Of a stretch of 64,000 nucleotides of DNA, positions 2 to 27,769 are shown in pieces. The translations under genes were made by a program, and so were the position numbers. Origin of the DNA: Planctomycetota bacterium. GTDB lineage: Bacteria > Planctomycetota > UBA11346. The DNA lies in assembly GCA_038318565.1 (NCBI GenBank), contig JBBQCI010000001.1, positions 42,724 to 106,723 on the forward strand, read 5' to 3'. The notes beneath the pieces were generated by a model. That model ran no database searches. It was given only the letters and a program-made list of their open reading frames with translations, and was not told where the DNA came from. Numbering within the stretch: position 1 is the stretch's first letter; each line of letters opens with the position of its first letter.

Positions 2-505
2 GCGATCCAGCTGTGGGACGAGGACGGGGTCGGCCCACTGCTGATGCACGCCTGCACAGAGGACACCCAGCGGACTGCCGGCTGGCAGGCCAGTCTGCAG
101 GCTTCTGTCACCGCCGCCCTGGTCGCCATGGCCAGACGGGCCGCATCGCGGTGTTCGCCTCCGACAACTACCGCAGCGGGTGCTTTAGCCCGGATCAGCC
201 CTGCGCTGGCGGTGATGGGGCAGGACTTCGGCCAGCCGCTGCGCGTACCCGAGTTAGCCCTCGCCTGCAATCTGGGAGCGGTGCAGTTCCGCCGCATCTT
301 CCGCAAGGCGCTGGGCTCCACGCCGGTTAAACACCAACAAATTCTGCGCCTGGCAGAGGCTCAACGCCTGATTGCTGGCGGAGCGCTGGTGCGCGAAGCG
401 GCCGAGGCGGTGGGCTACCGTTCGACGGCTTGTCTGGACCGGGTGTTCCGGCGTCTGGCTGGCACCAGTCCAGGGCGTTGGCGTACCGCTACGACAACTA
501 CCTGA
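2..505 (+). CDS. AraC-family transcriptional regulator, C-terminal HTH domain; the 5' end lies outside the window
   Basis: The frame is open from position 2. The tail ELALACNLGAVQFRRIFRKALGSTPVKHQQILRLAEAQRLI...AVGYRSTACLDRVFRRLAGTSPGRW matches the tandem HTH_AraC signature. Confidence 0.7.
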   Translation, partial: AIQLWDEDGVGPLLMHACTEDTQRTAGWQASLQASVTAALVAMARRAASRCSPPTTTAAGALARISPALAVMGQDFGQPLRVPELALACNLGAVQFRRIFRKALGSTPVKHQQILRLAEAQRLIAGGALVREAAEAVGYRSTACLDRVFRRLAGTSPGRWRTATTTT

Positions 506-2141
506 CCAGGGGAACGCCTTCATAAGCCAGGATCAACGGGCCACGTCCAGCGAGGTTGGCCCAAACGGCTATGCATGCTGCACCTGGCACGAAAGTCGAC
601 GCATTGACCAGTCCAAGCCGTGCCGCCAGCCCACTGCCCTTGGGGAATCGTTCCAACGGCAATGGGGCGGGTTCGACGGCCAGCTCGCGGACGCGGGCGG
701 CCACGGAACTGAGCGTGCCCAAGCCATCGGCCAGACCATCGGCCACCGCCTGTTCCCCGGTGAACACACGACCCTGTGCTAGCTGGTCAACCCGGGCGCG
801 CAGCAGTTTGCGCCGGCTGGCAACCAGGTTACGGAAGCGGTCGTCGACGTCGGCGATGACCGTGCGATAAACGGCCTCTTTGGCATCATTCCAGCCGCCC
901 ATGCGCAGGATGTCCGCGTGCGGCGAACCCAGTTCGACATGGCGCTTCAGGCCAAGCAACCCGGCTGCACCATCGACATCGGGAACCAGGGCGAAGGCGC
1001 CGATGGATCCAGTTATGGTGGCGCGGTGCACCCGGATCTCTCGGGCGGCGCAGGCGATCCAATAGCCACCGCTAGCGGCCACCGCGTCCATCAAGCAGAC
1101 CACCGGCTTGACGGCATCAAGCCGACGCACCGCCTGATGAATGCGGTCGCTGGCCCCGGCGTCGCCGCCGCCGGAATCGATGCGCAGGACGACCCCGGCG
1201 ATCCGCCGGTCGTCACGCAGACGGTCGAGCATCGCTACGGTGTCGCCGTCGGCGACGGTATCGCCGGGCATTGAGCGTTCGCCTGGTATGATCATGCCGG
1301 CCAGTTCCACCACCGCGATGGCCCGCACCGGCCGGACGGCGGCATCACCGCCGATGATCTGGCCCCAGAAGCGCATGATTCCGGCGAAACTGCTGAGATC
1401 CGGTACGTCAGGACCGAAGCGGACCATGCGCATCGGCTGCGGCTGGGCAGCCAGCCAGGCTCCGGGCTCAACCAGACTCTTGACCAGACCAAGATCGCGG
1501 GCGATCGGCGCCGTCTGCAAACCGGAGGCTCGCACCTTGGCCAAGGCTGCGGCATTGAAATCCGGTCGCTGACTCAGGGAAATGACGATTTTGTCCAATC
1601 CGTCCAGCAATTGGCGCATTTCGACGCGCGATTCGTCGGTCGGACCCTCGCGGGTGAAGGATTCCGGAGCGGTCTTGTAGGGACCACTGGCAACGGCGTG
1701 AAAACGCACGCCGATACGACCAAGAGCGCCAGCCATGTACCAGTGCTCGGCAGCTAATCCTCGCACGGCCTGCATGCCAGCGATCGGCATGGCGATGTCA
1801 TCGCACGCAGCAAGCACCAGCAGAGCCGGATCCTCAATCTGATCGATCAGGCAGCTGACCGTCTTGCCAGGGGCACGCTCGCGCAGGACGGCGGCAATTT
1901 CTTCGGCCGCGGCCAGACCTGGACGAAAGCCGCGCGACAAGTCCAGGACCAGTCGAGGTTCAGGCGCCAGCAGGGCTTCACGCAGCTTCTGCGTCACCTC
2001 ATGCAGCGATGGTTCGCCGCCGCCAAGGAGACCCTCGGATGGGCGCAGGCCACAGCTGCCGGCCAAGGTCAGGTGCACGCTGCCACGCGCTTCGCCCGCG
2101 TGCGCGAGGACAGCGGCTAGGAGTGCGATCAACAAGCGCAT
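498..2141 (-). CDS. sppA: signal peptide peptidase SppA (S49 family, 67K type; protease IV)
   Basis: 547 aa with an N-terminal signal peptide (MRLLIALLAAVLAHAGEA). It contains the S49 motif GGYWIACAAREIRVHRATITGSIGAF and a duplicated ClpP/crotonase-like domain. It converges on the AraC gene. Confidence 0.85.
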   Translation of the reverse strand: MRLLIALLAAVLAHAGEARGSVHLTLAGSCGLRPSEGLLGGGEPSLHEVTQKLREALLAPEPRLVLDLSRGFRPGLAAAEEIAAVLRERAPGKTVSCLIDQIEDPALLVLAACDDIAMPIAGMQAVRGLAAEHWYMAGALGRIGVRFHAVASGPYKTAPESFTREGPTDESRVEMRQLLDGLDKIVISLSQRPDFNAAALAKVRASGLQTAPIARDLGLVKSLVEPGAWLAAQPQPMRMVRFGPDVPDLSSFAGIMRFWGQIIGGDAAVRPVRAIAVVELAGMIIPGERSMPGDTVADGDTVAMLDRLRDDRRIAGVVLRIDSGGGDAGASDRIHQAVRRLDAVKPVVCLMDAVAASGGYWIACAAREIRVHRATITGSIGAFALVPDVDGAAGLLGLKRHVELGSPHADILRMGGWNDAKEAVYRTVIADVDDRFRNLVASRRKLLRARVDQLAQGRVFTGEQAVADGLADGLGTLSSVAARVRELAVEPAPLPLERFPKGSGLAARLGLVNASTFVPGAACIAVWANLAGRGPLILAYEGVPLVR

Positions 2142-2197: not shown

Positions 2198-2488
2198 TTA
2201 CAATCCTTTGCGACTGTAAGCTCGTTCGATCACTCCGCTCAGGTGGGTCTGGGCGTTACGCAGGTCGGTGGCATCCCCGTGCACGGCTGTAAAGAAATCC
2301 GCTCCTTGATCCGTCGGCTTGATGCCGACCAGGACAAAGCTCATACCCCCCAGGATGATCTGCACGGCTTTTCGCTGATCCTCGGTCAAACCGTCCGTTC
2401 CGCGCTCGGCCTCCGCCGGCGAAGTTGGCGCAGCCGGGGGTTTGGCAGCCCCAGCTACGCCCGGAAACTGGATGATCTTATCACTCAT
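2198..2488 (-). CDS. small hypothetical protein (about 96 aa)
   Basis: The ORF has consistent GC3 bias. I place the start at ATG 2488 (MSDKIIQFPGVAGAAK...). It lies upstream of sppA and co-directional with it. No family recognised. Confidence 0.35.
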   Translation of the reverse strand: MSDKIIQFPGVAGAAKPPAAPTSPAEAERGTDGLTEDQRKAVQIILGGMSFVLVGIKPTDQGADFFTAVHGDATDLRNAQTHLSGVIERAYSRKGL

Positions 2489-2675
2489 ACCCGTACGGTG
2501 GCACCGAATGCGGGTGCGCAACCTGGACCGGAGGCGGTGGGCCACTCACCCCCCCCGGTGACACACGCGCCCACTCCCTGTACTCTGCCACCCTTGGTCG
2601 CGGCCAACCAAAGCGCTAGCGTGCAGCCTTGCCCGGCTAGCTGCCGGTACGCATCCACCAGCGGGGATTCACGTT

Positions 2676-4529
2676 ATGGACAGCCATCAGGTCGCCTGGG
2701 GCCTCGACATCGGTCACTCGTCGATCAAGGCGGTCAAGCTCAGCCGCAATGGCAGTGACGTCACCGTACTCGGCTACGCCATCGAGCCCATCACCGTCGC
2801 GGAAGGTGGCGACCGCGATGCCGCCCTCCTCACCGCATTGCAGGCGATCATCGCCCGAGAGGAGTTCGGTGTCACGCCGGTCTTCGCCGCGATCAGCGGC
2901 AGGCAGGTGTTCACCCGCGCGGTCAACGTGCCGATGCTCAACCCCAAGCGCATGCATGCGATGGTGGAGCTGGAAGCCAAACAACAGATCCCTGGCAATT
3001 TCAATGAAGTCGAGTGGGGCTACCACAGCTCGCCGGCTCCTGACGGCGCCTCCCTGGATGTCGCCCTCTTTGCGGTCAAGCGCGAGATCATCCAGCAACT
3101 CATCACCAAGTGCAAAGGCGTTGGCCTCAATCTTGCCGGCGTCTCGGTCCCTTCGCTCGCGCTCTACAATTTCATCAAGTTCGACCAGCAGTTCCCAGAC
3201 GGAGAAGCGGTCATCATCCTTGATGTTGGCGCCGACAACACTGATCTCGTCGTCTACCAGGCCGACCAGCTGTGGATGCGCTCGCTGCCGGTTTCGGGCA
3301 ACGACATCACGCAGGTTTTCGCCAAGAAGTTCCGCGTTAGCGTCGCCGAAGCCGAAACGCTCAAGCGACAGGTCAACGATAGCCGCCAGGCCGACAAGAT
3401 CATCAAGGTGATCGAAAGTGGACTGACCGAACTGGTCAGCGAGATCAACCGCAGCATCGGTTTCTACAGGACGCAGAACACCAAGGCCGCGCTCGACAAC
3501 CTGGTGATCTCGGGGAACACCTTCCGCTTGCCCGGCCTGCCAGAATACATGGCCGAGAAGCTGCGCCTGACCATCAATATTCTCGAAGATCTCGATCGCA
3601 TCCAGGTCGCTGCGGGATTGGATCGTACCCACTTCATGCAGGACCTGCAGTGCCTTGGCGTTGCCATCGGGCTCGGCCTGCAGGCCACCGGCACCGCCCG
3701 CGCCAACGTCAACCTGATGCCCAGCGGCATGCAGGTCGAACGTCTGCTCAGCACCAAGAAATGGGCGGCAGCAGCGGTCATCGGCCTGCTTGGTGCAACC
3801 CTCTTCGCAGACTACTCCATCGCCAACAGCGCGGCGGAGAACAACGCCCGCTTGGCGACCAAGGTGACCCAGTACGCCAAGGACAACAAGGACCGCATGA
3901 AGCAGTCCGAGGCCGTCCTGCAAACCGTGCAGCAGCTGGCCCCGCAACTTGCCGCCTATGACGCAGTCGGGTCAAACCAGGGGCTGACCCATGCGGTCTT
4001 GTCAGGCGTCGTCGGAGTGGTCCAGACCATTGCCACCACCACCGAGATGCGCCCGGCAACCCCGGGCGGGGTGGGCGCGGCCGAACGATCGCCGCCATTG
4101 CAAGGCGCCTATCTCCGCCAGGTCGAGATGGGCGAACCAGCCGGCAACGGCAATACGGCCACCGCCACAGGCAACGATCCCTTCAGGCCGCTGGAGACCG
4201 AACGCATCGTCAACGTCCGGATCGACATCCCCGCCGGTGGCCGTCAAGGCGACATCCGGGCAGCCTTGCTGGATTCCCTGCGCAAGCTCCCGGTACCTGC
4301 GCACCTCCAGGATCTGACGCGTTCCCCCACCCTGTTCACCGATGTGCAGGTCCCAGAGGAGAAGGATGGCCAGGTCGAATGGTATTATCTCGACCGCGAC
4401 AACATCGATGAAGCCGGGAATGTGAAGCCGATCGAGGAGCGTCGTATGCTCTCCACCAGCATCACCACCTTCGTGTGCAAGCTGGCGACGTCTGCTGCAC
4501 CCGCCACTGCTCCGGAGGCCCAGAAGTGA
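2676..4529 (+). CDS. pilMN: type IV pilus / T2SS-like inner-membrane assembly protein, PilM-PilN fusion
   Basis: The N-terminal roughly 350 aa form an actin-like PilM domain (MDSHQVAWGLDIGHSSIKAVKL...). The conserved PilN N-terminal peptide (ANVNLMPSGMQVERLL) follows directly. After it come one TM helix (WAAAAVIGLLGATLFADY) and a PilN-like periplasmic coiled-coil and alpha/beta region. There is a GGGGA ribosome-binding site 8 nt upstream of the ATG. Confidence 0.7.
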   Translation: MDSHQVAWGLDIGHSSIKAVKLSRNGSDVTVLGYAIEPITVAEGGDRDAALLTALQAIIAREEFGVTPVFAAISGRQVFTRAVNVPMLNPKRMHAMVELEAKQQIPGNFNEVEWGYHSSPAPDGASLDVALFAVKREIIQQLITKCKGVGLNLAGVSVPSLALYNFIKFDQQFPDGEAVIILDVGADNTDLVVYQADQLWMRSLPVSGNDITQVFAKKFRVSVAEAETLKRQVNDSRQADKIIKVIESGLTELVSEINRSIGFYRTQNTKAALDNLVISGNTFRLPGLPEYMAEKLRLTINILEDLDRIQVAAGLDRTHFMQDLQCLGVAIGLGLQATGTARANVNLMPSGMQVERLLSTKKWAAAAVIGLLGATLFADYSIANSAAENNARLATKVTQYAKDNKDRMKQSEAVLQTVQQLAPQLAAYDAVGSNQGLTHAVLSGVVGVVQTIATTTEMRPATPGGVGAAERSPPLQGAYLRQVEMGEPAGNGNTATATGNDPFRPLETERIVNVRIDIPAGGRQGDIRAALLDSLRKLPVPAHLQDLTRSPTLFTDVQVPEEKDGQVEWYYLDRDNIDEAGNVKPIEERRMLSTSITTFVCKLATSAAPATAPEAQK

Positions 4530-5629
4530 AGCACCTCTACTGGATCGTGTGCGGCGTCACCATCGGCGTCATCCTCGTCGCCTGGTTCCTCGTTGTGCCC
4601 GCCGACAACGCCAGGGCGTCCAAACTGAAGCTCGACCAGCAGTCGAAGGACCTCAAGGATCTCGAGAAGCGTGCCGAGCGTGGCGATCCGCAAGGCGTCT
4701 TCGATGCCGAGAATTCGGCGGACACCCAGCGCCTGGCCAACGAATATCTGATTACCGAGAACTGGAAGCGGGTCCTGCAGCCGCACGTTGAGAAGTACGA
4801 GAAGCAGATGAAGGACCTCAAGGCCCAGTTGATGGGACGCGGAGCCTATCTGCATACCGTGGTTGCTCCGACGAAAAACACCCTGGAATGGTATAACGCC
4901 TACGCCACCGCTTCCGAGGCACTGGTGGTGCGTCTACGCGACGCCGGTTGTCTGCAGCGGGCCGCCGAAGACGAGATCCGTTCGGCTTCAGGCGAAAGTC
5001 CAGCGGCCGTCCGCAGCAGCGTCGGCCTGTTCACCCGCGCCGCTACATTCCCGGATCCCAGCCAGCATGCGCAGCTGACCACCAGATTGCGCGCCATGGA
5101 ACTGCTCGCCGACCGGCTCATCGAAGCCCGCCTCGCTGTGGCGAACAATCCGCTGATCGGCCCGACCGGCCGCAGCGAAGACCGAGCCAAGGCGGCCGCC
5201 GTGATTTTGTCCGTTGAATGGACTGCTGGCAGCGAGGCCGATGGCGGGGTGCGCAATCTGACCACCACCCTGTCCGGCCAGCTGCAGGCCCGCTCGGTCG
5301 GCTTGCGCCTGACACTTGAAGGGCCATTGAGCGCCCTCCTCGCCGCAAGCTCCACAATGGAACGCAACGCCGAGACGAATCGCCCCCTCGTCGCAGTGAC
5401 CTCAGCCAACCTCAGCCGGCGCGATAATGGCAAAGCCGGCGACCGTTTCGATATTGCTGATGACAACATCAGGCTGGTTCTGGCGGTCGAGATCATCGAA
5501 TTCGCCGAGACTGGAACCGGAACCGCTTCTGACAACGCGGCCAATACGCCAAGCGGTATGCCTCCGGCTATGGGGTCCCCCCCCGGTATAATGCCTGGCC
5601 GTCCACCTACGTCCCCCGGAGGCCGCTGA
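4526..5629 (+). CDS. PilO/GspM-like bitopic membrane protein with a Pro/Gly-rich C-terminal tail
   Basis: The GTG start overlaps the pilMN stop (GTGA). An N-terminal TM helix (LYWIVCGVTIGVILVAWFLVV) is followed by a coiled-coil and then an alpha/beta domain. The tail MPPAMGSPPGIMPGRPPTSPGG is proline-rich. I call it PilO-like from its architecture and its position after pilMN. Confidence 0.5.
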   Translation: MKHLYWIVCGVTIGVILVAWFLVVPADNARASKLKLDQQSKDLKDLEKRAERGDPQGVFDAENSADTQRLANEYLITENWKRVLQPHVEKYEKQMKDLKAQLMGRGAYLHTVVAPTKNTLEWYNAYATASEALVVRLRDAGCLQRAAEDEIRSASGESPAAVRSSVGLFTRAATFPDPSQHAQLTTRLRAMELLADRLIEARLAVANNPLIGPTGRSEDRAKAAAVILSVEWTAGSEADGGVRNLTTTLSGQLQARSVGLRLTLEGPLSALLAASSTMERNAETNRPLVAVTSANLSRRDNGKAGDRFDIADDNIRLVLAVEIIEFAETGTGTASDNAANTPSGMPPAMGSPPGIMPGRPPTSPGGR

Positions 5630-5630
5630 C

Positions 5631-7523
5631 ATGAGCGCCAAGACCTTTCTGATCGCCCATGGCGAGAAGCTCGCTGTCGCCGCCGTTGCCGGCGGCTGCA
5701 CCCTGGTGCTGATGGGCACGATCGACGACCCGACTATCCGCCCCAAAGACAACCAGGCGGCGATCGAGGCGATCAACGCCAAGATCGACGTCGTGTTCAA
5801 AAAGCAGAGCCCACCGGTGATGAAGGAGCCGCGCGCCTACCTCGACCAGCTCCTTGGCCGAATCGCGGACAGCGCGCCGACCACCCCAACGATGGCCTGG
5901 CTTACCAGTCCGCCTGACAAGGGCCGCGGCACAACGGTGATCGAAGGCAAGAATGTGCCACCCAGCGGCACCTACGTCTACATCTACGAACTGCTCGCCC
6001 CCACGGTGGCGCTTGAGGACGCGATCGGCTCGCTAAAAGTCAGCATCGCTCCACCGGTTGTTGCGGCCCAGGGCGCAGGCCGCCGCGTCACCAGCGAGGT
6101 CAGCCGGACCTGGACCCGCGACGACAAGGGCACGGTCACCAACACCGGACGCCACCTAGGCGTGCAGGTACAGATCAAGGTCGGCGACAACGACTGGAAG
6201 GCACTCGTGCTGCCCGGCGCCGGCAAGGATGGTGTGCTGCCGATCGACAAGCTGGCCAGCGCCCCAGTCACGATCCCGACTCCCGAGCCATGGCAACGCC
6301 ATCATCTCCGAGCTCGGCTGATCGCCGCAGCCACCGCCCTGGATCTTGATGCTAAGATCGAACGTCCCAAGCAGAGCGTCATCGTCTATCCTGGCGAAGC
6401 CTCCGCCGGGCCGACCGAGGACCAGGCCCTGCTCGATAAGGCCACGGCTCAATACGCAGCCAAGGATGGCGCACTATACAAGCTGTTCCTGCGTCCCTCC
6501 CCTGGCCCCCTGCCGACCAACAGCACACTGGAACCCGGCGAGAAGCTGTTCCTCGGTCCGTGGAGCCCGATCGCCAAAGTCGACGCCACCGCCAGTGTGC
6601 GCTTCGCCCTGGTTGGTCTCAGCACGGCTCCGATGGCGGAGGACCCGACCAAGACGCGCGACGTCGGACGCTTTTTGCTGCTGCGCCTGTTCCAGCAGGG
6701 CGAGGAGCGCAAATGGATGGAAAAACCTCTTGAATTGAAATTTGGCATCGGCGACGTCCTGGGCGTTAAGGGGGTAAAGATCGAGCATCCGTTTCTTGCA
6801 GGGAAGACGATTGAAGTCGATCTGATGACTCCCTTCGTCATCGACAAGCTAGTCAAGGATGAGAAGCGTGTCCTCTACTGGATGGTACGGGCAAAGACGC
6901 GTCCGACCGGCGGCAAGGACCGCGACCTAGAACTGTCGAACAAGGAAGTTCCAACCGATATCGTGGTACTGAAGAATCCGGAGACGGGCAGCGAGCTCAC
7001 CTTGACCAAGCTCATCAGCATCTCCCCGCCAAACCAGGCGAACGTGCAAGTCTACCCGTATCACGCCAGCCAGTACGTGGAGAAGGATGACTTCACCTCG
7101 GCGCCAAGCGAATTCCGCCAGTGGGGTCTGATCCCCGAAAAGCCCAAGGACTGGGCTCCCGGCAAAGGTCCGCTCGCGGAGCTATACAAGGCCAAGAAGG
7201 ACGAGGAGGCTCTCGACGCCGAAAGCTTCACCACCGACACCGCCTATTACGCCTTCCCTGATGGACGTCTGGTGTGGTGGGAACGGATAGAACACAAACA
7301 GATGGTCCACGACCCGGACGGCGTCCTGAGCGACAAGTCAGCTCTGCCCGCTCCGACCAAGACGGAACCGGCGCCGGGCCCAACCACAAAGCCGCCAGCT
7401 GGCATGCCGCCCACCGGTGCAACCAAGCCACCGGCTGGCTCGTCGCTGCCTCCTCCTGGAGGCATGCCACCCGGTGGCATGCCTCCCAGCTACACCCCAC
7501 CACCAGCACCGCCACGCAGGTGA
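5631..7523 (+). CDS. hypothetical 630-aa signal-anchored periplasmic protein, proline-rich C-terminus (occupies the pilP position)
   Basis: An N-terminal hydrophobic anchor (LAVAAVAGGCTLVLMG) is followed by a roughly 560-aa domain with no recognisable family. The C-terminal tail is PAPTKTEPAPGPTTKPPAGMPPTGATKPPAGSSLPPPGGMPPGGMPPSYTPPPAPP. It sits between the PilO-like gene and the first secretin. Confidence 0.5.
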   Translation: MSAKTFLIAHGEKLAVAAVAGGCTLVLMGTIDDPTIRPKDNQAAIEAINAKIDVVFKKQSPPVMKEPRAYLDQLLGRIADSAPTTPTMAWLTSPPDKGRGTTVIEGKNVPPSGTYVYIYELLAPTVALEDAIGSLKVSIAPPVVAAQGAGRRVTSEVSRTWTRDDKGTVTNTGRHLGVQVQIKVGDNDWKALVLPGAGKDGVLPIDKLASAPVTIPTPEPWQRHHLRARLIAAATALDLDAKIERPKQSVIVYPGEASAGPTEDQALLDKATAQYAAKDGALYKLFLRPSPGPLPTNSTLEPGEKLFLGPWSPIAKVDATASVRFALVGLSTAPMAEDPTKTRDVGRFLLLRLFQQGEERKWMEKPLELKFGIGDVLGVKGVKIEHPFLAGKTIEVDLMTPFVIDKLVKDEKRVLYWMVRAKTRPTGGKDRDLELSNKEVPTDIVVLKNPETGSELTLTKLISISPPNQANVQVYPYHASQYVEKDDFTSAPSEFRQWGLIPEKPKDWAPGKGPLAELYKAKKDEEALDAESFTTDTAYYAFPDGRLVWWERIEHKQMVHDPDGVLSDKSALPAPTKTEPAPGPTTKPPAGMPPTGATKPPAGSSLPPPGGMPPGGMPPSYTPPPAPPRR

Positions 7524-7659: not shown

Positions 7660-10161
7660 ATGCGCTCGCGTTCACACATTCCGACCCACCTCTCGCCGCT
7701 TTTGCTGGCTATCGCCGTCCTGGCGCCTGCCGCGGAAGGTGGGCCTGCGCCGACTCCGGCACCCGCTCCAGCCGCGGTCGAACAGACTGCCCGGCCGGGC
7801 GAGGCCGAGGTCGCAGCTGACGCGGCTTATGCCGAAGCGCTGGCCAAGTATCGAGCAGGCGCCTTCGCCGAATCGCTCGAGCTGGTCGATCGCGCCGTCC
7901 AGCTATACCCGCCGCACGCTGGCGCCCAGCAGCTGCGCAGCGATGTGCTTGCCGTGCTCAACAACCGTGACAACCGCCTCAAGATGGCTGCTGCCTGGTT
8001 CGGCAGCCTGCAGGACGTCCGCACCCAAGAGACCGCCGTACGGCTGGCCGCCCTGCTCGAACGCGGCGACAAGGCGATGGCGGCGGGCGATTTCGAATCA
8101 GCGGAGCTGGACTACGATCGCGTCGACATCGGTATCCGCTCGTTTCCTTTTGCCTTCGAATGGGGCGAACTGCCCAAGCAGGTCGCCGCCAAGCGAGCCG
8201 AGGCCAGCGACAAAGTGCGCCTACGTACCATTCAGCGCCAGACCGATGACCGTCAGGCCGCTGCCGACACGGCCAAACGCCAAGCCGATCTCCAGGCCGA
8301 AGGTCTGCGCCTGAAGGTCGACGAACTCATGCGTCGCGCCAAGACCGCATACGACCGCAAAGATTACCGTCGCTCCGAAGTCGAGTCGTGGAACGCCTAC
8401 GAGTTGGATCGGCGCCGCGACGACGCTCGCGAACTCTATCTCGCGTCACGCCGCGAAGGCCATTACCAGTTCGATGGCCAATACCGTGTCGAGCGCGCCG
8501 AAGGCATCGCCCGGGTTTCGGAGGAGATCCACAAGGCGCTGGTTCCGCAGAATGAACTGCTGGTCTACCCGGAAGATTGGCGCCGCCGCACTCTGCGTAC
8601 TCCGCGAGAGATCGGCACACAGAAGGCCGAACCGTGGATGGCGGCCCTCAACGACCGCCTCGAACAGCGCGTCACCTTCGACTTTCAGGACCAGTCCTTT
8701 GAAGACGTCGTTGCCTTCCTCCGTCAAGTGACCGGAGTCAACATCATCGTTAGCCCGCAGGTCCTGGCCACCGCAGGCGGCGGCACGGTGACCCTGAAGG
8801 TGCGCGAGATGCGCTTCCGGGATGCCCTGAAATGGATCCTGGAAATCACTGGCTGGAAGATGGCTATTCAGGATCAAGCCATCTTCATCAATAATGAGGT
8901 GATCACTGGCGCGGCAGCCCTGCGTCTCTACGACGTCACTGACCTGATCACACCGGTGCGAGACTTCGCAGGTGTCGAACTGGCGTACGCTGCCGGTGGC
9001 GGCGCAGGCGGCGCTGCAGGCGGCGGACTGTTTGGGGCCGGCGGTGCCGAAGAGACTGGCGCAGCGCAGGATCCCCAAGAGTTGGTGGACTTCATCAAGA
9101 ACAACGTCACCAAAGACCAGTGGGGCCAGAACAATATCGACGTGCAGCAGCGCAGTGGCTCGACCCTGTTCGTCAGTCACACTCCGGAAGGTCACGAACT
9201 GGTCGCCCGTCTGCTCGCCAACCTGCGCAAGCAGACGGCCTTGCAGGTCAATGTCGGCGTCCGCTTGTTGGATGTGCGCAAAGGCTTCTTCGAAGAGATC
9301 GGCGTCGCCTGGACGGACAATCCCGCTGGATTCCTGAATAACACTGGCGCCGCGTCACTTCCTGGCAGTTTAGCAAACGGCACACCCGTTGATAGTCTGG
9401 AAGGCTGGACGACACGTCGCAATATGAATGGGGAGGCGGGTTACGTCGCTGACGGTTCGATCACCCAGAACCTGCCTGGTAACCGCACCGGGTATATTGC
9501 CCGCGGCCTAACCCTGGAAGGATCGCTGAACTCATCGAACTTCCTCAATGCTGATCAATTGAACGCCATCTTCACCGCCTCTGAGGACGAAACCGACTCG
9601 ACCGTGGTTCAGCATCCGATGCTCAGTTGCTTCAATGGTCAACGTGCCAATGCGACGTTCATCAACCAGTATGCGTTCATCTCCGACTACGAGATCGTCT
9701 CGGGCAACTACGACCCGGTGATCACGGTGCTGAACTACGGTAATATCCTGGATGTGCGTCCGGTTGTTTCCAGCGACCGCAAGTACATCACCATGGAGAT
9801 CCGACCCACGGCTGTCAGCTTCGTCGAATCAACGACGGAGACGATCATCGGTGTGCAGATCATCAACACTGGCGACATCGGGGTTGTCATTCCTGGCGTC
9901 GGGTACCCGATCGAACTGCCCAACATGCTGGTGCAGACCTTGCGCTCGACCGTCATGTTGCCCGATCGTGGAAGCCTCCTCATTGGCGGATTCAACCAGT
10001 CGACGCGTGTACGCAGCCACAGTGGCGTGCCGTTCCTCAGCCACATCCCGTTCCTCGGACGGCTGTTCAGCAAGAACGGCATCTACGACGACAACCGCAG
10101 GTCCTTTTTCCTGCTCAACGCGACCATCATGGACCTTACCGAGGCCGAGTCGCAGCAGTGA
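7660..10161 (+). CDS. secretin (GspD/PilQ family) paralog 1, 833 aa
   Basis: It has a signal peptide and an Arg/Asp/Glu-rich helical N-terminal region. An STN-like domain follows (VTFDFQDQSFEDVVAFLRQVTGVNIIV...ALKWILEITGWKMAIQ), then an N3-like domain. The C-terminal secretin domain ends with GVPFLSHIPFLGRLFSKNG. Confidence 0.85.
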   Translation: MRSRSHIPTHLSPLLLAIAVLAPAAEGGPAPTPAPAPAAVEQTARPGEAEVAADAAYAEALAKYRAGAFAESLELVDRAVQLYPPHAGAQQLRSDVLAVLNNRDNRLKMAAAWFGSLQDVRTQETAVRLAALLERGDKAMAAGDFESAELDYDRVDIGIRSFPFAFEWGELPKQVAAKRAEASDKVRLRTIQRQTDDRQAAADTAKRQADLQAEGLRLKVDELMRRAKTAYDRKDYRRSEVESWNAYELDRRRDDARELYLASRREGHYQFDGQYRVERAEGIARVSEEIHKALVPQNELLVYPEDWRRRTLRTPREIGTQKAEPWMAALNDRLEQRVTFDFQDQSFEDVVAFLRQVTGVNIIVSPQVLATAGGGTVTLKVREMRFRDALKWILEITGWKMAIQDQAIFINNEVITGAAALRLYDVTDLITPVRDFAGVELAYAAGGGAGGAAGGGLFGAGGAEETGAAQDPQELVDFIKNNVTKDQWGQNNIDVQQRSGSTLFVSHTPEGHELVARLLANLRKQTALQVNVGVRLLDVRKGFFEEIGVAWTDNPAGFLNNTGAASLPGSLANGTPVDSLEGWTTRRNMNGEAGYVADGSITQNLPGNRTGYIARGLTLEGSLNSSNFLNADQLNAIFTASEDETDSTVVQHPMLSCFNGQRANATFINQYAFISDYEIVSGNYDPVITVLNYGNILDVRPVVSSDRKYITMEIRPTAVSFVESTTETIIGVQIINTGDIGVVIPGVGYPIELPNMLVQTLRSTVMLPDRGSLLIGGFNQSTRVRSHSGVPFLSHIPFLGRLFSKNGIYDDNRRSFFLLNATIMDLTEAESQQ

Positions 10162-12359
10162 GCCGGAGGCACCAGGATTCGATGCAGACGGGTTCCGCGC
10201 ATGGGCGCGGCCAGTTGCCGCACGCCCTAGTGCTCACGTGTGTCGCCCTGGTAGGACTGCACGGGGCGGACCCGGTATCTGACCATGTGGCAGAGGCACA
10301 GGTCGGCACTGAGGCCGTCGCCATAGAGCTTATACGGGCCATCGATGATGCGTCCTTTCTGCTGGCTGCAGGACGTGCGCGTGAAGCAGCTGGACGCCTG
10401 AGCGATGCCTTGGCTGCAGCCGGGGCCAATGCCCCGCTGGCTGATCGACGACGGGCCGAAGCGTTGCTCGCCGACATCCATCGTCAGGAATCGCGCGATC
10501 AGACGGCTGGCGCGGAAGCCCTGCGCCGGTCCAGCGCTGCCGATGCCCAGGTTGCAGCGAACCATCAGTCTCGTGCTGCCGGCAATGCACGGGCGGAGCG
10601 CTTGTCGCGTATCGATGATCTGCGTCAGCGGAAACACAACGAGCTGGCGCTGGCACATTGCCGCTCGCTCCTGCACGATCTGCCGGGCGATGAAGAGGTT
10701 GATGCGATCTACCGTGAGATCCTCGATGAGACTCATACCGCCCGCAAGATGATTATTGAGGATCGCCAACGTGAACTCCGCAGCGAGTTGGCATTAATGA
10801 TCGAAAAGTCCCTCATCCCTGAGGGACTTGATGGCATGCCTATGTTCCCATCCGATTGGGGGACGGAGCGCATCCGACGTCAATCACCGATAGATGTGTC
10901 CGATCGTCCGGCCGCCTGGGAAGTGACGTTATCCGATCGGCTTGCCAGCCGAGCAACTGTTCAATTGGACGCAGTGCCACTACAAGAGGCGCTGGAACTG
11001 GTCTCCAAGCTGGGTGGGGTCAACCTGATCCCCGCTCCAGAACTGATCGCCTCGGGAGATCGGCTTATCACGCTGCGCGCGAACGACATGCGCTTGGACA
11101 GCATCCTCTCGTGGATAGCCCAACAGGCCTCAACCACCTGGGGCCTGGTGAGCGGTGGGGTTTTTGTTGGAGAACAGCCGGCTTCCAGTCGCAGCATCGT
11201 CCTGCACGACCTCGGTGAACTCCTGGTCGGAGTCGGCGACTTCCCTGGTTTGAGCCTAGCCATGACCACTGGTGGCGGAGGCGGTGGAACAGTAGGTTTC
11301 CTTGCGCCTGCCGCTACAGGCACAGTTGTCCCGACCGCAGATGACATCGCCGACCTCATCCGCAGATCAGTCAGTCCGGCCACCTGGACCGATTCCGAAA
11401 ACACCATGGTGGTTCGCGGCAATGCCCTGCTGGTAACGGCTCCGCCTGCCGTGCATCGTCTCCTGAGGGAATTCCTGCGCGCGCAATCGGCCCAGCACAG
11501 CCTGATGGTCCGAGTTCAACTGTACTGGTTAGAGTTGACCGACACATACGCCGAAGAGATCGGGGTGCAGTGGAGTAGCGGTGGCACCTACCTGACTGGC
11601 ATTCCCGGCAACGCCACGAACAGCTCCGGTCTGCTCCGTCAGGTTAACGGATGGGCTGTCGAGGGTGGTACGGCCAATCAGCTGCCGGCAAATTCGATGA
11701 CCCTGCAGGCATCGGGAACACCCGGAATGACCATGCAGACATCGTTCCTGGGCGATAGCCAGATCTCGGCAGTTCTTCAGGCAAGCGAGCGAAACCATCA
11801 GGGTCGAGTCCTGCGGTCCCCAGAGGTGGCCTGCATGAATGGCCAGCGGGCGAATGCCTTTTTCGGCGACCAGATCGCCTACATCAGCGACTACGAGATT
11901 GTCAGCGGAAACTATGATCCGGTGATCACCGTGCTCAACATCGGCAGTTCGATCGATGTGCGACCACTAGTCAGTGCGGATCGCCGTTACGTGACAATGG
12001 AACTGCGCGCCGCAACTGCCACAGCAACCTTCACGACCGAAAATATTATCGGCGTGCAGATTCTTGCCGGCGATGTCGGTTTGGCCATTCCTGGACAGAC
12101 CTTTCCCGTCGAACTGCCTAACGTCGAAGTCCGCGAAGTCGGTACAACCGTCATGCTGCCAGACAAAGGCAGCCTCTTGGTTGGCGGATTCACGTCGGGA
12201 CTCGATCAATTCGTTGCGACTCGCGTACCCTTGATCGGATCCATCCCGTTCCTGGGTCGTCTCTTCGGCGCTCGCGGTCGCTATGCCGAAAAGCGCAAAC
12301 TCAACCTGCTGACCACCGTCACCATCATCAACTATCCCGAACTGGAGGCCCGCCTGTGA
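10158..12359 (+). CDS. secretin (GspD/PilQ family) paralog 2, 733 aa
   Basis: Its start overlaps the paralog 1 stop. It has an STN-like domain (VQLDAVPLQEALELVSKLGGVNLIP...LDSILSWIAQQAS) and a secretin domain ending RVPLIGSIPFLGRLFGARG. The N-terminal helical region is shorter than in paralogs 1 and 3. Confidence 0.85.
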   Translation: MSRRHQDSMQTGSAHGRGQLPHALVLTCVALVGLHGADPVSDHVAEAQVGTEAVAIELIRAIDDASFLLAAGRAREAAGRLSDALAAAGANAPLADRRRAEALLADIHRQESRDQTAGAEALRRSSAADAQVAANHQSRAAGNARAERLSRIDDLRQRKHNELALAHCRSLLHDLPGDEEVDAIYREILDETHTARKMIIEDRQRELRSELALMIEKSLIPEGLDGMPMFPSDWGTERIRRQSPIDVSDRPAAWEVTLSDRLASRATVQLDAVPLQEALELVSKLGGVNLIPAPELIASGDRLITLRANDMRLDSILSWIAQQASTTWGLVSGGVFVGEQPASSRSIVLHDLGELLVGVGDFPGLSLAMTTGGGGGGTVGFLAPAATGTVVPTADDIADLIRRSVSPATWTDSENTMVVRGNALLVTAPPAVHRLLREFLRAQSAQHSLMVRVQLYWLELTDTYAEEIGVQWSSGGTYLTGIPGNATNSSGLLRQVNGWAVEGGTANQLPANSMTLQASGTPGMTMQTSFLGDSQISAVLQASERNHQGRVLRSPEVACMNGQRANAFFGDQIAYISDYEIVSGNYDPVITVLNIGSSIDVRPLVSADRRYVTMELRAATATATFTTENIIGVQILAGDVGLAIPGQTFPVELPNVEVREVGTTVMLPDKGSLLVGGFTSGLDQFVATRVPLIGSIPFLGRLFGARGRYAEKRKLNLLTTVTIINYPELEARL

Positions 12360-14869
12360 AGCCCCTGCACCACCGCCGTCTGGCGCTCACCGCCACCATG
12401 CTTGCCCTGGCCTACGCCCCGGTGACTGCCGCCGAGACGCCGCCGGCACCGCCTGCCCCACAGACCACTGGCGACGCCAACGCGGCGGCTGCCTTGGACA
12501 AGTACGCGACCGAACGTGACGCCCACCAGGCGGGACCTAACCAGGCGGCCGAGTACCACTTCGTCCGCGGCATGCGCGCCAGGGAAGAGAACCGCTTGCC
12601 CGACGCCGTGCGCGACCTGACTCTGGCGGTCGACTACGCTCCAGCCAATGCCGAGTACCAGGCCCAGCTGCGCGCTGTCCGCGCCCTCGCCGGCCTCGAA
12701 CGCGACCCGCGTTCGCAGCAGATCGACCGGCTCGTCGATGAGGTCCAGGTCAAGGATCAGGAGCTGTGGAATGAGTCCCAGGCAAAGAAGGCCGAAGGCA
12801 TCGCTGCCATGCAGGCCGGAGACTACAATCTGGCCGATCGCACCTTCCAGATGGCACTAGTACGCGTCGAAAGCCTGCCTTTCTCGGATGATCGCAAGAC
12901 CTCGGCAACGACCGAGCTGAACACCCTATTGGCCGAGGCCAAGACCCGTCGCGAAAGCGCCGACCGTGACGATGCCGCTTCCCGCAATCGTGCGGCATCC
13001 GACCGCAGCCGCGAACTGCGCGACATCGGCCTACAGCTCGAACGTGACCGCATCGACGCCATGCTGCGCCGCGCCCTACGCGCCCGCGAACGTCGTGACT
13101 ACGACGAATCCATCCTGATCTGCGAACAGGTTTTGAAGCTCAACCGGGCCGACGACCGGGCGACCGAACTGCTCGCCAAATGTCGCCGGGAACGCCACGT
13201 CTATATCCGCCAGATGACGGCCGACCGCTGGGACGAGGAGCACAAGCTGCTCTCGGAATCCATCCGCACCGCCATGCTGCCGCAGCTCGAACTCGTACGT
13301 TACACCACCGAATGGCCGGAGATCGACGCCCGCCGCAGCGCACCGGTGCAGGGTCTCGAGGAGAAGAGCGAATCCTGGCGCAAGGAGATCGCCAACCAGC
13401 TGGAACAGGAGATTACGCTCGACTTCCAAGATACCGACCTGGCCGACGTGGTGTCCTTCCTGCAACGGGTGACCAACGCCAACATCGTGCTCGATCCGCG
13501 GGTTCTGGCTGCCACGCCAGCCCCGGTGACCCTACGCGTCGAACGCATGAAGTTGAAATTCGTCCTCGACTTTGTGATGAAGATCACCGGTCTGAAGTAC
13601 ACTATGCGCAACGAGGCGATCTACATCTCCAACGAGGAAGGTACGCGCGGCGACCTCTTCATGAAGATGTATGACATCCGCGATCTGACCCACGCCATGG
13701 CCAGCTTCCCAGGCCCGAGCCTGGAAATCCCTGAACCAGGCGGTACCGGCAGCCAGCTGCTGCCTCCGATCGAAGCTGAAGCCAAGCCGGAGACGGGGGA
13801 ATTCATCGAAATCATCAAGCAGGTGGTCGTTCCCGCTTCGTGGGCCGATGGCACAGGCACGACCATCGAAGAGTACAACGGCTCCATGGTGGTGACCCAG
13901 AGCAATGAAGTTCACGTTCAGATCGACGAATTGCTGCGGGCCCTACGCAATCAGCGCGGCTCGCAGGTGCACGTGAAGTGCAAGTTCCTATCGGTAGAAA
14001 ATTCGGCCATGGAAGAGATAGGCGTCAACTGGCGCAATTATGGTACGAGCACCATCTATGGCGCGCCGCAGCCAACCGCTGTACCGCCGTTCAATACCGC
14101 TCCGATCACGGCAGCGAATCCCGTAAACATCGGCAATGCCGGTGCCTCCTGGCAGGGACCAGGTGCCGTCAATACAGCCGGTGAAGTCAATTCCGGCCTT
14201 GCCGGTAGCGGCCTGCCCGGCTATCTGACCGGGACGAACCTGACGACCACCGGTGGTCTGACGGCCAGCACCGCGACGTGGCAGCTTGGATCCGACTTCT
14301 TCGCCCGCGCTATCGTCAATGCGGTCGAGAAAGAGAATCGGGGCAACATCATCTTCCAACCAGACATCACCCTGTTCAACGGTCAACAGGCACACATCGT
14401 CAACATGAATCAGCGGTCGTACATTTCCGACTACGACGTCGTGCAGGGCCAGTATGATCCGATCATCTCGATTCTGTCCTACGGCACAGTGCTTGATGTG
14501 CAGGCCATCGCTTCGGCCGATAAGAAGTACATCACCCTGACGATGCGACCGACCAACGCGAACCTCGACCAGTTCCGTCGCTTCGTCATCGGTCAGTCCG
14601 CCTTCGGATCGTACCCGCTGACCGTACCGCAGATGGTCTACAACGCGGTGCGCACCTCGGCCACCATCCCCGATGGCGGCTCGCTGGTACTGGCCGGCAT
14701 GACCAATGGCATCAGCAACCGCAGTCACGCAGGCGTGCCATTCCTCAGCCACATCCCATTCCTTGGTCGGCTGTTCAGCACCAATGGCCGGGCCGAGTCG
14801 GAACGCCGCCAGATCATCGTCGTGCAGGCAGATCTAGTCCTCTTCGACGAGATCGAGTCGAAGCTGTAA
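12356..14869 (+). CDS. secretin (GspD/PilQ family) paralog 3, 837 aa
   Basis: The GTG start overlaps the paralog 2 stop (GTGA). It has a clear signal peptide (MKPLHHRRLALTATMLALAYAPVTAAE), an STN-like domain (ITLDFQDTDLADVVSFLQRVTNANIVLD) and a secretin domain ending GVPFLSHIPFLGRLFSTNG. A long Gly/Thr/Asn-rich insertion lies within the secretin domain. Confidence 0.85.
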   Translation: MKPLHHRRLALTATMLALAYAPVTAAETPPAPPAPQTTGDANAAAALDKYATERDAHQAGPNQAAEYHFVRGMRAREENRLPDAVRDLTLAVDYAPANAEYQAQLRAVRALAGLERDPRSQQIDRLVDEVQVKDQELWNESQAKKAEGIAAMQAGDYNLADRTFQMALVRVESLPFSDDRKTSATTELNTLLAEAKTRRESADRDDAASRNRAASDRSRELRDIGLQLERDRIDAMLRRALRARERRDYDESILICEQVLKLNRADDRATELLAKCRRERHVYIRQMTADRWDEEHKLLSESIRTAMLPQLELVRYTTEWPEIDARRSAPVQGLEEKSESWRKEIANQLEQEITLDFQDTDLADVVSFLQRVTNANIVLDPRVLAATPAPVTLRVERMKLKFVLDFVMKITGLKYTMRNEAIYISNEEGTRGDLFMKMYDIRDLTHAMASFPGPSLEIPEPGGTGSQLLPPIEAEAKPETGEFIEIIKQVVVPASWADGTGTTIEEYNGSMVVTQSNEVHVQIDELLRALRNQRGSQVHVKCKFLSVENSAMEEIGVNWRNYGTSTIYGAPQPTAVPPFNTAPITAANPVNIGNAGASWQGPGAVNTAGEVNSGLAGSGLPGYLTGTNLTTTGGLTASTATWQLGSDFFARAIVNAVEKENRGNIIFQPDITLFNGQQAHIVNMNQRSYISDYDVVQGQYDPIISILSYGTVLDVQAIASADKKYITLTMRPTNANLDQFRRFVIGQSAFGSYPLTVPQMVYNAVRTSATIPDGGSLVLAGMTNGISNRSHAGVPFLSHIPFLGRLFSTNGRAESERRQIIVVQADLVLFDEIESKL

Positions 14870-14941: not shown

Positions 14942-15030
14942 AGCGTATCTGACACCGATCGTTTCAATCGTTGCGTCAGTGGGTCCTGGAGATTGCACCT
15001 TCAGCACGCGTCCATACGTTTTGTAAAGAT

Positions 15031-27539: not shown

Positions 27540-27769
27540 GGCGGCTCCTGGAAAGAGGTCTGCCCATACTATGCGGTCCCGCGTAAGGCCGCAACTGGAC
27601 AAACGGCACTAGGAGCCTGTCGGAGATTCTCCGCTAGGCTTTTGGCTTTCGCGGATTCAGCCTCCCTTTGGTCACGAGTTTGCGGAAACCGCGAAAACAG
27701 GCTCTTTGCGCAAGAGGCAAGCCCGGCAAGCCCACTTTGACCCCCTAGTCGCCTGTCTCCGACAGGCTC

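Follow-up and report, generated by a model that had tools for sequence, protein, structure and literature searches.

A single-chain PilM-PilN-like protein heads a secretin-linked operon in Planctomycetota

PilM of type IV pilus systems binds a short cytoplasmic part of PilN, and the PilM-PilN complex is viewed as the equivalent of GspL, which is a single chain (PMC4471445). For C. difficile, the membrane accessory proteins are given as PilC, PilO and one called PilMN (PMC7057214, PMC6143707). In Akkermansia, amuc_1101 is described as coding for PilM in the secretin-linked MUL2 locus (PMC13174399), and Amuc_1098-1102 is the secretin-linked locus that contains Amuc_1101 (MUL2B; PMC5332112, PMC13174399). 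Fused equivalents of a PilM and PilN pair are thus already known in GspL and in C. difficile PilMN, for which reason the architecture described below will not surprise specialists. The C. difficile protein is reportedly regarded by Melville and Craig (2013) as a true gene fusion; BfpC of the type IVb pili is grouped with the GspL/EpsL architecture. GspL is not known to have the actin-fold nucleotide-binding motifs, the full four-subdomain PilM or the INLLP peptide.

The gene analysed here encodes one protein that combines a PilM domain, a PilN-type peptide, a membrane anchor and a periplasmic domain. It lies near the beginning of the window, the whole 64,000-nucleotide stretch of Planctomycetota DNA that was analysed, and its features are as follows:

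2676..4529 (stop included), + strand: whole gene, single-chain PilM-PilN-like protein, 617 aa (ORF list and sequence)
2700..3683, + strand: cytoplasmic PilM (actin/FtsA-like) domain, aa 9-336 (PF11104, TIGR01175, PDB matches, AF2)
3684..3707, + strand: short linker A-T-G-T-A-R-A-N, aa 337-344 (alignment to the 5EOU junction 'FDSSGMAR')
3708..3722, + strand: PilN-type PilM-binding motif V-N-L-M-P (canonical INLLP), aa 345-349 (conservation and alignment to 5EOU)
3762..3824, + strand: single TM helix, aa ~363-383, with basic K361-K362 just before it (Kyte-Doolittle, conservation, spacing)
3828..3953, + strand: periplasmic helical stalk, possible coiled coil, aa ~385-426 (AF2, reach of the Amuc_1101 HMM)
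3963..4496, + strand: periplasmic globular domain, clade-specific, aa 430-607 (AF2, profile search)

The ORF runs exactly from the ATG at 2676 to the TGA that ends at 4529, and its start codon is supported by the invariant M1 and by an N-terminus, MDSHxVAWGLDIG, that is common to homologues. A gene of this kind could arise as an artefact, if an error in sequencing or assembly had lost a stop codon or shifted the frame and so merged separate pilM and pilN genes; an interrupted gene is indeed present in L027, the closest MAG relative (88% identity). The break in L027, however, is a deletion of ~11 codons with a frameshift inside the PilM domain, away from the junction, and the identical 617-aa protein is called on 11 contigs, each from a separate assembly. 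Of 46 related loci from Planctomycetota in which the gene is present, 42 have an intact single ORF of 600-690 aa; besides L027, the other three merely end with their contig. The PilM/PilN junction region is conserved in protein sequence across homologues, more than 120 of which (600-666 aa) cover 96-100% of the 617-aa protein. The artefact is effectively refuted and its probability is negligible; the uninterrupted frame between the two domains, which the first-pass annotation had wanted confirmed, is real.

The N-terminal half is a complete PilM domain, as had been claimed from the sequence. PF11104 (PilM_2) is matched over model positions 1-338 of 340 (E 6.5e-38, 131 bits against a cut-off of 27) and TIGR01175 (pilM) over positions 3-346 of 348 (157.7 bits against a cut-off of 133); phmmer matches of the domain in the PDB include the PilM proteins of 3JC8 and 2YCH. 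The pLDDT of the AF2 model is 80-89 across aa 1-340, and Foldseek comparison of the model with the PDB retrieves 5EOU, 5EOX, 2YCH and 3JC8, with E-values between 1e-25 and 1e-21 and TM scores (target) of 0.65-0.80, the top match being 5EOU (E 3.4e-25, 354 aligned columns on a 352-residue chain). For the PilM domain, a TM of 0.77-0.80 to PilM structures is obtained. Residues D11, G13, K18, I181-L-D-V-G-A186, N188, T189, G280 and T282 do not vary among 24 members of the family; from general knowledge of the fold, D11-x-G13...K18 is taken to be the phosphate-1 motif, I181-LDVGA-x-NT189 the phosphate-2 motif and the G280 region the adenosine motif. Judged by these residues, the actin-fold nucleotide motifs of the PilM domain are intact.

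After a linker of 7-8 residues the chain continues into the PilN-type motif. The peptide that the first-pass annotation quoted as the conserved N-terminus of PilN, VNLMPSGMQVERLL, is located at aa 345-358 (nt 3708-3749); what stands of that assignment is the motif core, A-N-V-N-L-M-P at aa 343-349, whose family form A-x-V-[N/D]-L-[M/L]-[P/S] corresponds to the INLLP of canonical PilN, while the remainder of the quoted peptide has no such correspondence. The core is found at the junction site in 117 of the 117 long homologues checked, and elsewhere the same degenerate pattern has just 17 occurrences in 86,735 residues; the motif therefore lies far above chance. In the family, L347 is invariant and conservation of V345 and P349 reaches 90% or more. 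By phmmer, 'GTARANVNLMP' of the fusion is aligned to 'SSGMARINLLP' of 5EOU, the P. aeruginosa PilM:PilN(1-12) chimera; the alignment extends through PilN(1-12) and scores 69.2 bits, against 63.5 bits to the same PilM without the peptide. This chimera shares with the fusion the PilM C-terminus, a short linker and the PilN peptide, and it is the best structural match; it is, however, artificial and ends after 12 PilN residues, whereas the natural protein goes on into the membrane and the periplasm. The covalent joining of a full PilM domain to a PilN-type binding peptide and a membrane anchor, the central proposal of the first annotation, is borne out, with both phmmer and Foldseek pointing to 5EOU.

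In the AF2 model the pLDDT is 81 at aa 341-350 and falls below 50 for the next 30 residues, a pattern that may be a hint of peptide docking. The tethered peptide would lie in the 1A/1C groove of the PilM domain to which it is joined, on the model of the PilM:PilN(1-12) chimera. It is rather improbable that the peptide instead reaches across to the next subunit and binds the PilM domain there, in a domain-swapped, trans arrangement that would chain subunits head-to-tail into a cytoplasmic ring; the linker is short enough that it could favour swapping, and one of the best matches, the in-situ machine model 3JC8, contains a PilM ring. The natural linker is nevertheless within one residue of (and shorter than) the engineered 'FDSSGMAR' junction of 5EOU, which crystallised as a folded unit, and the geometry of the AF2 monomer is confident at aa 341-350; both points argue for binding in cis, though neither is a rigorous discriminator between cis and trans.

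The sole strongly hydrophobic stretch of the protein, WAAAAVIGLLGATLFADYSIA, starts at aa 363-365, the highest 19-residue Kyte-Doolittle windows beginning at aa 364-365, and K361, W363 and A364 are invariant. Between motif and helix lie 13-18 residues (median 15); for 12 canonical PilN proteins the range is 11-20 (median 12), and the PilN-like TM helix that had been placed after the peptide is thus found at a spacing within the canonical range. From K361-K362 and the cytoplasmic PilM domain we infer a bitopic, N-in orientation. AF2 predicts one long helix from aa 350 to 426 with low to moderate confidence.

The periplasmic fold of PilN is a permuted ferredoxin-like (alpha-beta-beta)x2 arrangement that is common to PilO, to the periplasmic part of GspL and to GspM. 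In the fusion, aa 430-607 are predicted by AF2 (alignment A3) to have the order alpha-beta-beta-alpha-beta-beta, with a pLDDT of 89.4 and a pTM of 0.84, and the C-terminal domain is conserved among homologues. The further claim that the second half is the periplasmic domain of PilN is not upheld. PF05137 (PilN) has no match at E<=1 in aa 338-617, against 91.5 and 89.5 bits for two canonical PilN proteins used as controls; NCBIfam gives no PilN, PilO or GspL match in the C-terminal half, a profile of this half (A2) finds nothing among PDB sequences, and the periplasmic domain shows no GspM signal either. When A2 and A3 were compared by hhalign with profiles of PilN and PilO drawn from 12-13 betaproteobacterial pilMNOPQ loci, the probability stayed below 2% (<=1.9% against the PilN profile of 13 sequences); this test is of low power because the PilN-vs-PilO control reached 13.8% only. 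A Foldseek search of the PDB with the domain model gives unrelated phage proteins as its best matches (E 8e-3) and PilO in 21st place at E 0.21, while the periplasmic chains of GspL/EpsL are absent from its top 50 matches and from the sequence-profile matches.

When the profile of aa 338-617 was searched exhaustively against 1.84 billion proteins, matches were obtained in 41 representative clusters only. Ten short matches were inspected by sequence or N-terminus (P0121-P0124, P0131, P0137, P0144, P0150, P0159 and P0160), and none of the ten is a stand-alone homologue of the C-terminal half, all being fused proteins or their fragments; cluster P0136 was rejected as a spurious leucine-rich-repeat match. 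The periplasmic half is PilN-like in topology and secondary-structure order only. These results could be taken to mean that the C-terminal half is not derived from PilN, a PilM gene having gained an unrelated, lineage-specific anchor and periplasmic domain, with NLMP either convergent or a remnant of the first ~20 PilN residues: every test beyond the TM helix is negative for PilN, PilO or GspL similarity, the domain is limited to the clusters above, and aa 430-607 cannot be aligned with the periplasmic parts of the more distant fused proteins. Such an origin is considered unlikely, as the motif, its spacing, the TM helix, the stalk and the alpha-beta-beta-alpha-beta-beta order match the plan of PilN, and a bitopic partner gene lies directly downstream, like pilO after pilN. 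The periplasmic domains of PilN and PilO themselves diverge past sequence recognition, in line with the low value of the hhalign control.

Intact orthologues of 600-690 aa head the same operon, consisting of the fusion, two bitopic proteins and three secretins, in ~45 Planctomycetota genomes, and more distant fused relatives with the canonical NLLP occur in Phycisphaerae and Pirellulales; the survey of related taxa proposed in the first-pass annotation thus does yield fused genes. Clostridial locus L060 from the genome scan is ftsA beside ftsZ and not pilMN, and it was left out along with clostridial loci L062 and L065, whose matches cover the same region. NCBIfam NF045709 (Amuc_1101, equivalog) is matched at 222.6 bits (E 1.2e-65; cut-off 650), aa 4-427 of the fusion aligning to model positions 4-442 of 608, which is ~90 residues beyond the PilM domain; all the fused relatives likewise match this 608-position model below its cut-off and past the PilM domain, to model positions 435-516. 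In this PVC-specific family, which is related to Akkermansia Amuc_1101, the fused form is normal and conserved. The fusion and Amuc_1101 are both PilM-like proteins of ~600 aa encoded in the order PilM-like protein, bitopic proteins, secretin; unlike Amuc_1101, the fusion scores far under the 650-bit cut-off and has a periplasmic domain outside the HMM alignment, and its locus has three secretins and no pilin-like gene upstream of the fusion.

The genes that follow the fusion are these:

4526..5629, + strand: p2, a 367-aa bitopic protein with an N-terminal TM helix followed by a charged helical region (ORF, Kyte-Doolittle, synteny)
5631..7523, + strand: p3 (630 aa), which has a hydrophobic segment at the N-terminus and a tail rich in Pro (ORF list)
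7660..14869, + strand: three tandem, translationally coupled secretin genes, S1 (7660-10161), S2 (10158-12359) and S3 (12356-14869) (PF00263 in each)

The GTG start of p2 overlaps the stop codon of the fusion (GTGA), which indicates translational coupling. The protein is called with the same 367 aa in public contigs and has its Kyte-Doolittle peak at aa 4-26; it is syntenic in 44 of 46 related loci and is cut by the contig end in the other two. By position and topology only, p2 is a candidate PilO-like partner; it gives no PilO or T2SSM signal by Pfam or hhalign (2.5% probability against PilO by the latter). The p3 gene is kept in synteny in 35 related loci, and the order fusion-p2-p3-S1-S2-S3 is complete in 25 loci, most of the others continuing up to the contig end. 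Searches with p2 and p3 returned no Pfam family, no NCBIfam match at E<=1 and nothing by phmmer against the PDB; hhalign of the two against PilO, PilN, A2, A3 and each other found nothing, and they show no similarity to the neighbours of the Phycisphaerae fused gene. The three secretins share 25-35% pairwise identity and form an orthologous triplet kept across the clade. S2 scores best with the family TIGR02517 type_II_gspD (99 bits) and S1 with Amuc_1098_fam (77 bits; cut-off 750), the GspD N0 domain is weakly matched by S1 and S3, and all secretin scores are far under every family cut-off. In the 64-kb window there is no pilin gene by the GFTLIE-type DNA pattern and no PilB or PilT; a lone PilC/GspF is encoded 12 kb away.

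Several of these features bear on the role of the machine, whose substrate may be a pilus, a pseudopilus or an uptake device. One possible but less favoured reading is that the fusion is the GspL equivalent of a T2SS-like or uptake machine, as proposed for Akkermansia MUL2 and mucin acquisition, rather than of a surface pilus, and that its single chain reflects a T2SS-like branch. The joining of cytoplasmic, TM and periplasmic parts is the architecture of GspL (PMC4471445), the window is without a pilin gene, the GspD matches of S1-S3 point the same way, and the nearest curated family is Amuc_1101 of the MUL2 locus (PMC13174399). Distant fused relatives have sub-threshold matches to T2SSL, at most 20.4 bits (P0154) against a cut-off of 25.5; the fusion itself, however, has no PF05134 (T2SSL) match at E<=1, scores above the cut-off for PilM and retains the nucleotide-binding motifs. 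By Foldseek it reaches cytoplasmic EpsL/GspL only at E 1e-10 to 1e-8 (TM 0.5-0.6), against ~1e-25 for PilM, the PilM matches being ~15 orders of magnitude better, and the low secretin scores noted above also speak against this reading. This reading concerns the role of the machine and not the identity of the protein. It is a separate and unlikely proposition that the C-terminal domain, p2 and p3 are new folds unrelated to PilN, PilO and PilP in a distinct PVC-specific trans-envelope machine, whose channel would consist of three paralogous secretins (a heteromer or three specialised pores) and which would form a type IV filament branch of its own, neither T4P nor T2SS. No test supports the earlier suggestion of a T4P/T2SS intermediate, the fusion being simply the conserved state of its PVC-specific family.

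With GspL/EpsL the fusion shares a single chain with an actin-like cytoplasmic domain, a TM helix and a periplasmic domain, so that the GspL-like architecture seen in the first annotation is confirmed; unlike GspL, it retains the four-subdomain PilM, the nucleotide motifs and an explicit INLLP-type peptide. The accompanying statement that the signatures are those of PilM and PilN and not of GspL holds for PilM, and is not supported for PilN in the periplasmic half. Canonical T4aP PilM and PilN (T. thermophilus 2YCH, M. xanthus 3JC8, P. aeruginosa 5EOX) have in common with the fusion the full PilM domain, the INLLP-type peptide, a TM helix ~12-15 residues past the peptide, a periplasmic stalk with a small alpha/beta domain, and a downstream bitopic partner gene and secretin(s). 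They differ in being two polypeptides rather than one; the periplasmic core of the fusion is without a PF05137 signal, p2 and p3 are not recognisable as PilO and PilP, and three secretins stand in place of one PilQ. C. difficile PilMN is likewise a natural protein named as a PilM-PilN combination, a likeness drawn from the naming in papers only, and it belongs to a Gram-positive host without a secretin. The arrangement had been presented as unusual; the fusion is real, but in view of the GspL equivalence (PMC4471445) and of C. difficile PilMN (PMC7057214, PMC6143707) it is less unusual than implied.

The fusion is probably the platform subunit, in the inner membrane, of a secretin-linked type IV filament machine of the PVC type, in which PilM and its membrane partner are supplied as one chain; by analogy, it would be the functional PilM-PilN counterpart of single-chain GspL. 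With the peptide held in its own groove, PilM would always be membrane-anchored and always 'PilN-bound'. The ratio of PilM to the PilN-type part is fixed at 1:1, as had been pointed out, a trivial consequence of covalent fusion. The periplasmic part may pair with p2 in a PilO-like role, the 630-aa p3 may link the periplasmic part to the secretins, and the face of PilM may recruit a PilB-type ATPase and the PilC platform, both of which would be encoded elsewhere.

The protein is a natural reproduction of the PilM:PilN(1-12) chimera that structural biologists engineered, and as a single-chain fusion it is a handy target for structural work on the link from cytoplasm to periplasm. Public names ('type IV pilus assembly protein PilM', and 'FtsA' for Amuc_1101) conceal half of the protein, and a separate pilN is not to be expected in these genomes. 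Through this operon, uncultured Planctomycetota are connected with MUL2 of Akkermansia, a locus studied for mucin acquisition and host signalling. A whole clade appears to run its machine with PilM permanently tethered to a PilN-type anchor, which argues that dynamic release of PilM is not essential for such machines.

The fusion gene heads a secretin operon. The features of this region are:

498-2141, minus strand: S49 (SppA-type) peptidase gene, 5' of the operon and opposite in orientation
2198-2545, minus strand: small hypothetical gene, likewise upstream on the opposite strand
2676-4529, plus strand: fusion gene, ORF from ATG to TGA, 617 aa
4526-5629: p2, the 367 aa product of the next gene; N-terminal TM helix, then a charged helical region
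5631-7523: p3, the 630 aa product of the gene after p2; N-terminal hydrophobic segment
7660-10161, 10158-12359 and 12356-14869, plus strand: S1, S2 and S3, tandem paralogous secretins, translationally coupled through 4-nt GTGA overlaps
14971-18021, plus strand: Ser/Thr protein kinase gene, 1016 aa, directly 3' of the third secretin
26313-27602, minus strand: PilC/GspF platform gene (T2SSF, two domains, E 2.3e-65)

The ORF has exactly the coordinates of the first-pass annotation, and the G+C content of the window is 60-68%. Its single frame is not an artefact of a frameshift or hidden stop: gene calls on 11 independently assembled contigs give the identical 617 aa protein (sources include two samples from ENA and one from JGI), and 42 of 46 orthologue-holding Planctomycetota loci carry a single intact ORF of 600-690 aa; three others are cut at the end of a contig. 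The p2 gene is also called at 367 aa beside the identical fusion in public contigs. The N-terminus MDSHQVAWGLDIG agrees with the start of all full-length homologues; at 4526-4529 the fusion stop codon shares bases with the GTG start of p2 (GTGA), an overlap typical of translational coupling. The closest relative, L027:10001-11830 (88% identity), is the sole interrupted orthologue; an ~11-codon deletion and frameshift follow '...ILEDLDRI', and the continuation in another frame starts 'MQDLQSLGVAMG...'. The break falls within the PilM domain rather than at the junction with the PilN part; the locus is not a natural PilM/PilN split, and a faulty MAG assembly or a pseudogene is the probable explanation.

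The first half of the fusion is a bona fide PilM, and complete, as had been claimed; Pfam PilM_2 matches aa 9-336 over essentially the whole model (E 6.5e-38), TIGR01175 (pilM) exceeds its curated cut-off (157.7 versus 133 bits), and T2SSL has no Pfam match in the fusion. Searches of PDB sequences with phmmer return PilM from M. xanthus (3JC8, 1.2e-25), T. thermophilus (2YCH) and P. aeruginosa (5EOX). In the AlphaFold2 model, computed from 24 aligned family sequences, the PilM domain has pLDDT 80-89; the top Foldseek ranks of the model are PilM structures (E 1e-25 to 1e-21, target TM 0.65-0.80), followed by FtsA (~1e-17) and then EpsL/GspL cytoplasmic domains at only 1e-10 to 1e-8. D11-x-G13...K18, I181-LDVGA-x-NT189 and G280 are invariant across the family and presumably represent the phosphate-1, phosphate-2 and adenosine motifs of the actin fold.

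A PilN-type N-terminal peptide does follow the PilM domain: A-N-V-N-L-M-P occupies aa 343-349, 7-8 residues beyond the last PilM helix (the peptide originally quoted was aa 345-358, nt 3708-3749). The degenerate motif A-x-V-[N/D]-L-[M/L]-[P/S] is found at the junction in 117 of 117 long homologues examined, and elsewhere in those proteins only 17 times in 86,735 residues; L347 never varies, and conservation is at least 90% at V345 and P349. In phmmer, 'gtaranvnlmp' of the fusion pairs with 'ssgmarinllp' in the PilN part of 5EOU, an engineered P. aeruginosa PilM:PilN(1-12) chimera, with a single-residue difference in linker length; the chimera scores 69.2 bits versus 63.5 bits for the same PilM without the peptide, and is the best Foldseek match of the whole model (354 aligned columns, 352-residue chain). 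In the model, pLDDT is 81 at aa 341-350 and below 50 in the next 30 residues, the pattern expected if the peptide packs on the PilM domain. By analogy with 5EOU, the peptide would fill the PilM groove of its own chain, leaving PilM constitutively membrane-bound and peptide-loaded at 1:1; alternatively, binding may be in trans, to an adjacent subunit.

The PilN-like TM helix is W363-A383, the only strongly hydrophobic stretch past the PilM domain, with K361-K362 directly before it; K361, W363 and A364 show no variation. The distance from the motif to the best 19-residue hydrophobic window is 13-18 residues (median 15) in the fusion family versus 11-20 (median 12) in 12 canonical betaproteobacterial PilN proteins from pilMNOPQ loci; in motif, TM helix and spacing the fusion is PilN-like at the start of its second half. 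A stalk, predicted at low confidence as a single long helix, extends to ~aa 426.

The periplasmic domain is present; AlphaFold2 of aa 430-607, run separately on a 31-sequence alignment, is confident (pLDDT 89.4, pTM 0.84), and its elements run helix, strand, strand, helix, strand, strand, the order described for the (alpha-beta-beta)x2 cores in PilN, PilO, periplasmic GspL and GspM (PMC4471445). Its assignment to PilN was not borne out, and the fusion lacks a recognizable PilN core domain: PF05137 (PilN) has no match at E<=1 in the C-terminal half (two canonical PilN controls score ~90 bits), PDB sequences searched with the family profile yield nothing for the periplasmic part, and Foldseek against the PDB gives no match below E 1e-3 (PilO 2RJZ ranks 21st, E 0.21). 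Probabilities from hhalign against PilN and PilO profiles are below 2%, a test of little power since the PilN-versus-PilO control reaches only 13.8%. As no test detected a relationship to PilN, PilO or GspL, the periplasmic part is PilN-like in plan only, and this half may have no PilN origin. An exhaustive search of 1.84 billion representative proteins with the aa 338-617 profile returned only 41 clusters; none of ten inspected non-spurious clusters holds a free-standing PilN-like protein, all being fused proteins of ~600-740 aa or fragments. P0136, a 1859 aa leucine-rich-repeat protein (E 3.6e-24), was rejected as a repeat-driven false positive, its score arising from 22 short 'PSLQALYL' repeats resembling the profile strand 'PPLQALYL', and is worth leaving out of any family census.

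Foldseek matches of the periplasmic domain (window 3963-4496) are headed by phage tail-terminator proteins, with TM of 0.2-0.5; these and the tailocin and neck matches (lambda gpU, 2GJV, pyocin collar, T1, GTA) are all non-significant and possibly reflect generic alpha/beta similarity. The uncharacterised protein 2L25 is the top sequence-profile match (non-significant) and ranks 34th in Foldseek.

The proposed combination of PilM and PilN signatures in a GspL-like layout holds for the PilM domain and the PilN N-terminal motif but not for the PilN core domain; the fusion shares the GspL architecture but does not score as GspL by HMM, and the same architecture is common to Amuc_1101, whose HMM cut-off it likewise does not reach. 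Single-chain equivalents are already established: the PilM-PilN complex is regarded as the GspL counterpart (PMC4471445), and a PilMN protein is described in C. difficile (PMC7057214, PMC6143707). The family is present in public databases, labelled PilM. In Akkermansia, Amuc_1101 serves as the PilM of the MUL2 locus (Amuc_1098-1102), which also codes for a secretin and the PilO/PilN-like Amuc_1100 (PMC5332112, PMC13174399, bioRxiv 10.64898/2025.12.30.696933).

Neither p2 nor p3 belongs to a recognisable family, and their profiles show no similarity to PilO, PilN, the fusion C-terminus or one another; p2 aa 171-259 weakly matches bactofilin structure 6RIA (phmmer E 0.019). S1, S2 and S3 share 25-35% pairwise identity, with an N-terminal TPR match that is weak in S1 and near-threshold in S3; the best family of S1 is Amuc_1098 (77 bits, far under its cut-off). 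In the proposed machine, the periplasmic part of the fusion would pair with p2, p3 would link them to the secretins, and an ATPase and platform protein would dock on the PilM face. Its role may be T2SS-like or in uptake rather than pilus-building. Neither a GFTLIE-type prepilin motif nor PilB or PilT occurs in the window, the lone PilC/GspF gene has no PilB/GspE or pilin gene beside it, and no pilin-like gene was found upstream of the operon at the position of Akkermansia Amuc_1102. The adjacent kinase gene may point to regulation of the machine; at L031, an orthologous locus, two kinase-like ORFs lie 5' of the operon.

One conserved polypeptide joins a PilM domain, short linker, PilN-type peptide, canonically spaced TM helix, stalk and periplasmic domain. 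A word-indexed search gave 239 homologues, the best 120 being nearly all 600-666 aa, covering 96-100% of the query and, where named, PilM from Planctomycetes; a scan in which each species was represented by a single genome placed the gene in 47 Planctomycetota loci. Remoter fused proteins with canonical NLLP and a TM helix (P0152, P0154, P0155, a 775 aa Phycisphaerae protein and Pirellulales proteins of ~750-770 aa) have periplasmic parts not alignable with that of the query. The query and all these relatives match NCBIfam NF045709, a 608-position model named 'Amuc_1101 family PilM-like pilus complex protein', with scores of ~195-237 bits, well below the equivalog cut-off of 650. The alignments reach model positions 435-516, well beyond the end of the PilM domain; this fused layout therefore seems to be characteristic of PVC bacteria. 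The order fusion-p2-p3-S1-S2-S3 is complete in 25 loci, and most others keep it up to the contig end. Of most remaining interest are the periplasmic components, which match no recognisable family, and the secretin triplet, kept orthologue by orthologue in 25 Planctomycetota loci; since secretins are normally homo-oligomers, the three may together build a heteromeric channel or each form a specialised pore.
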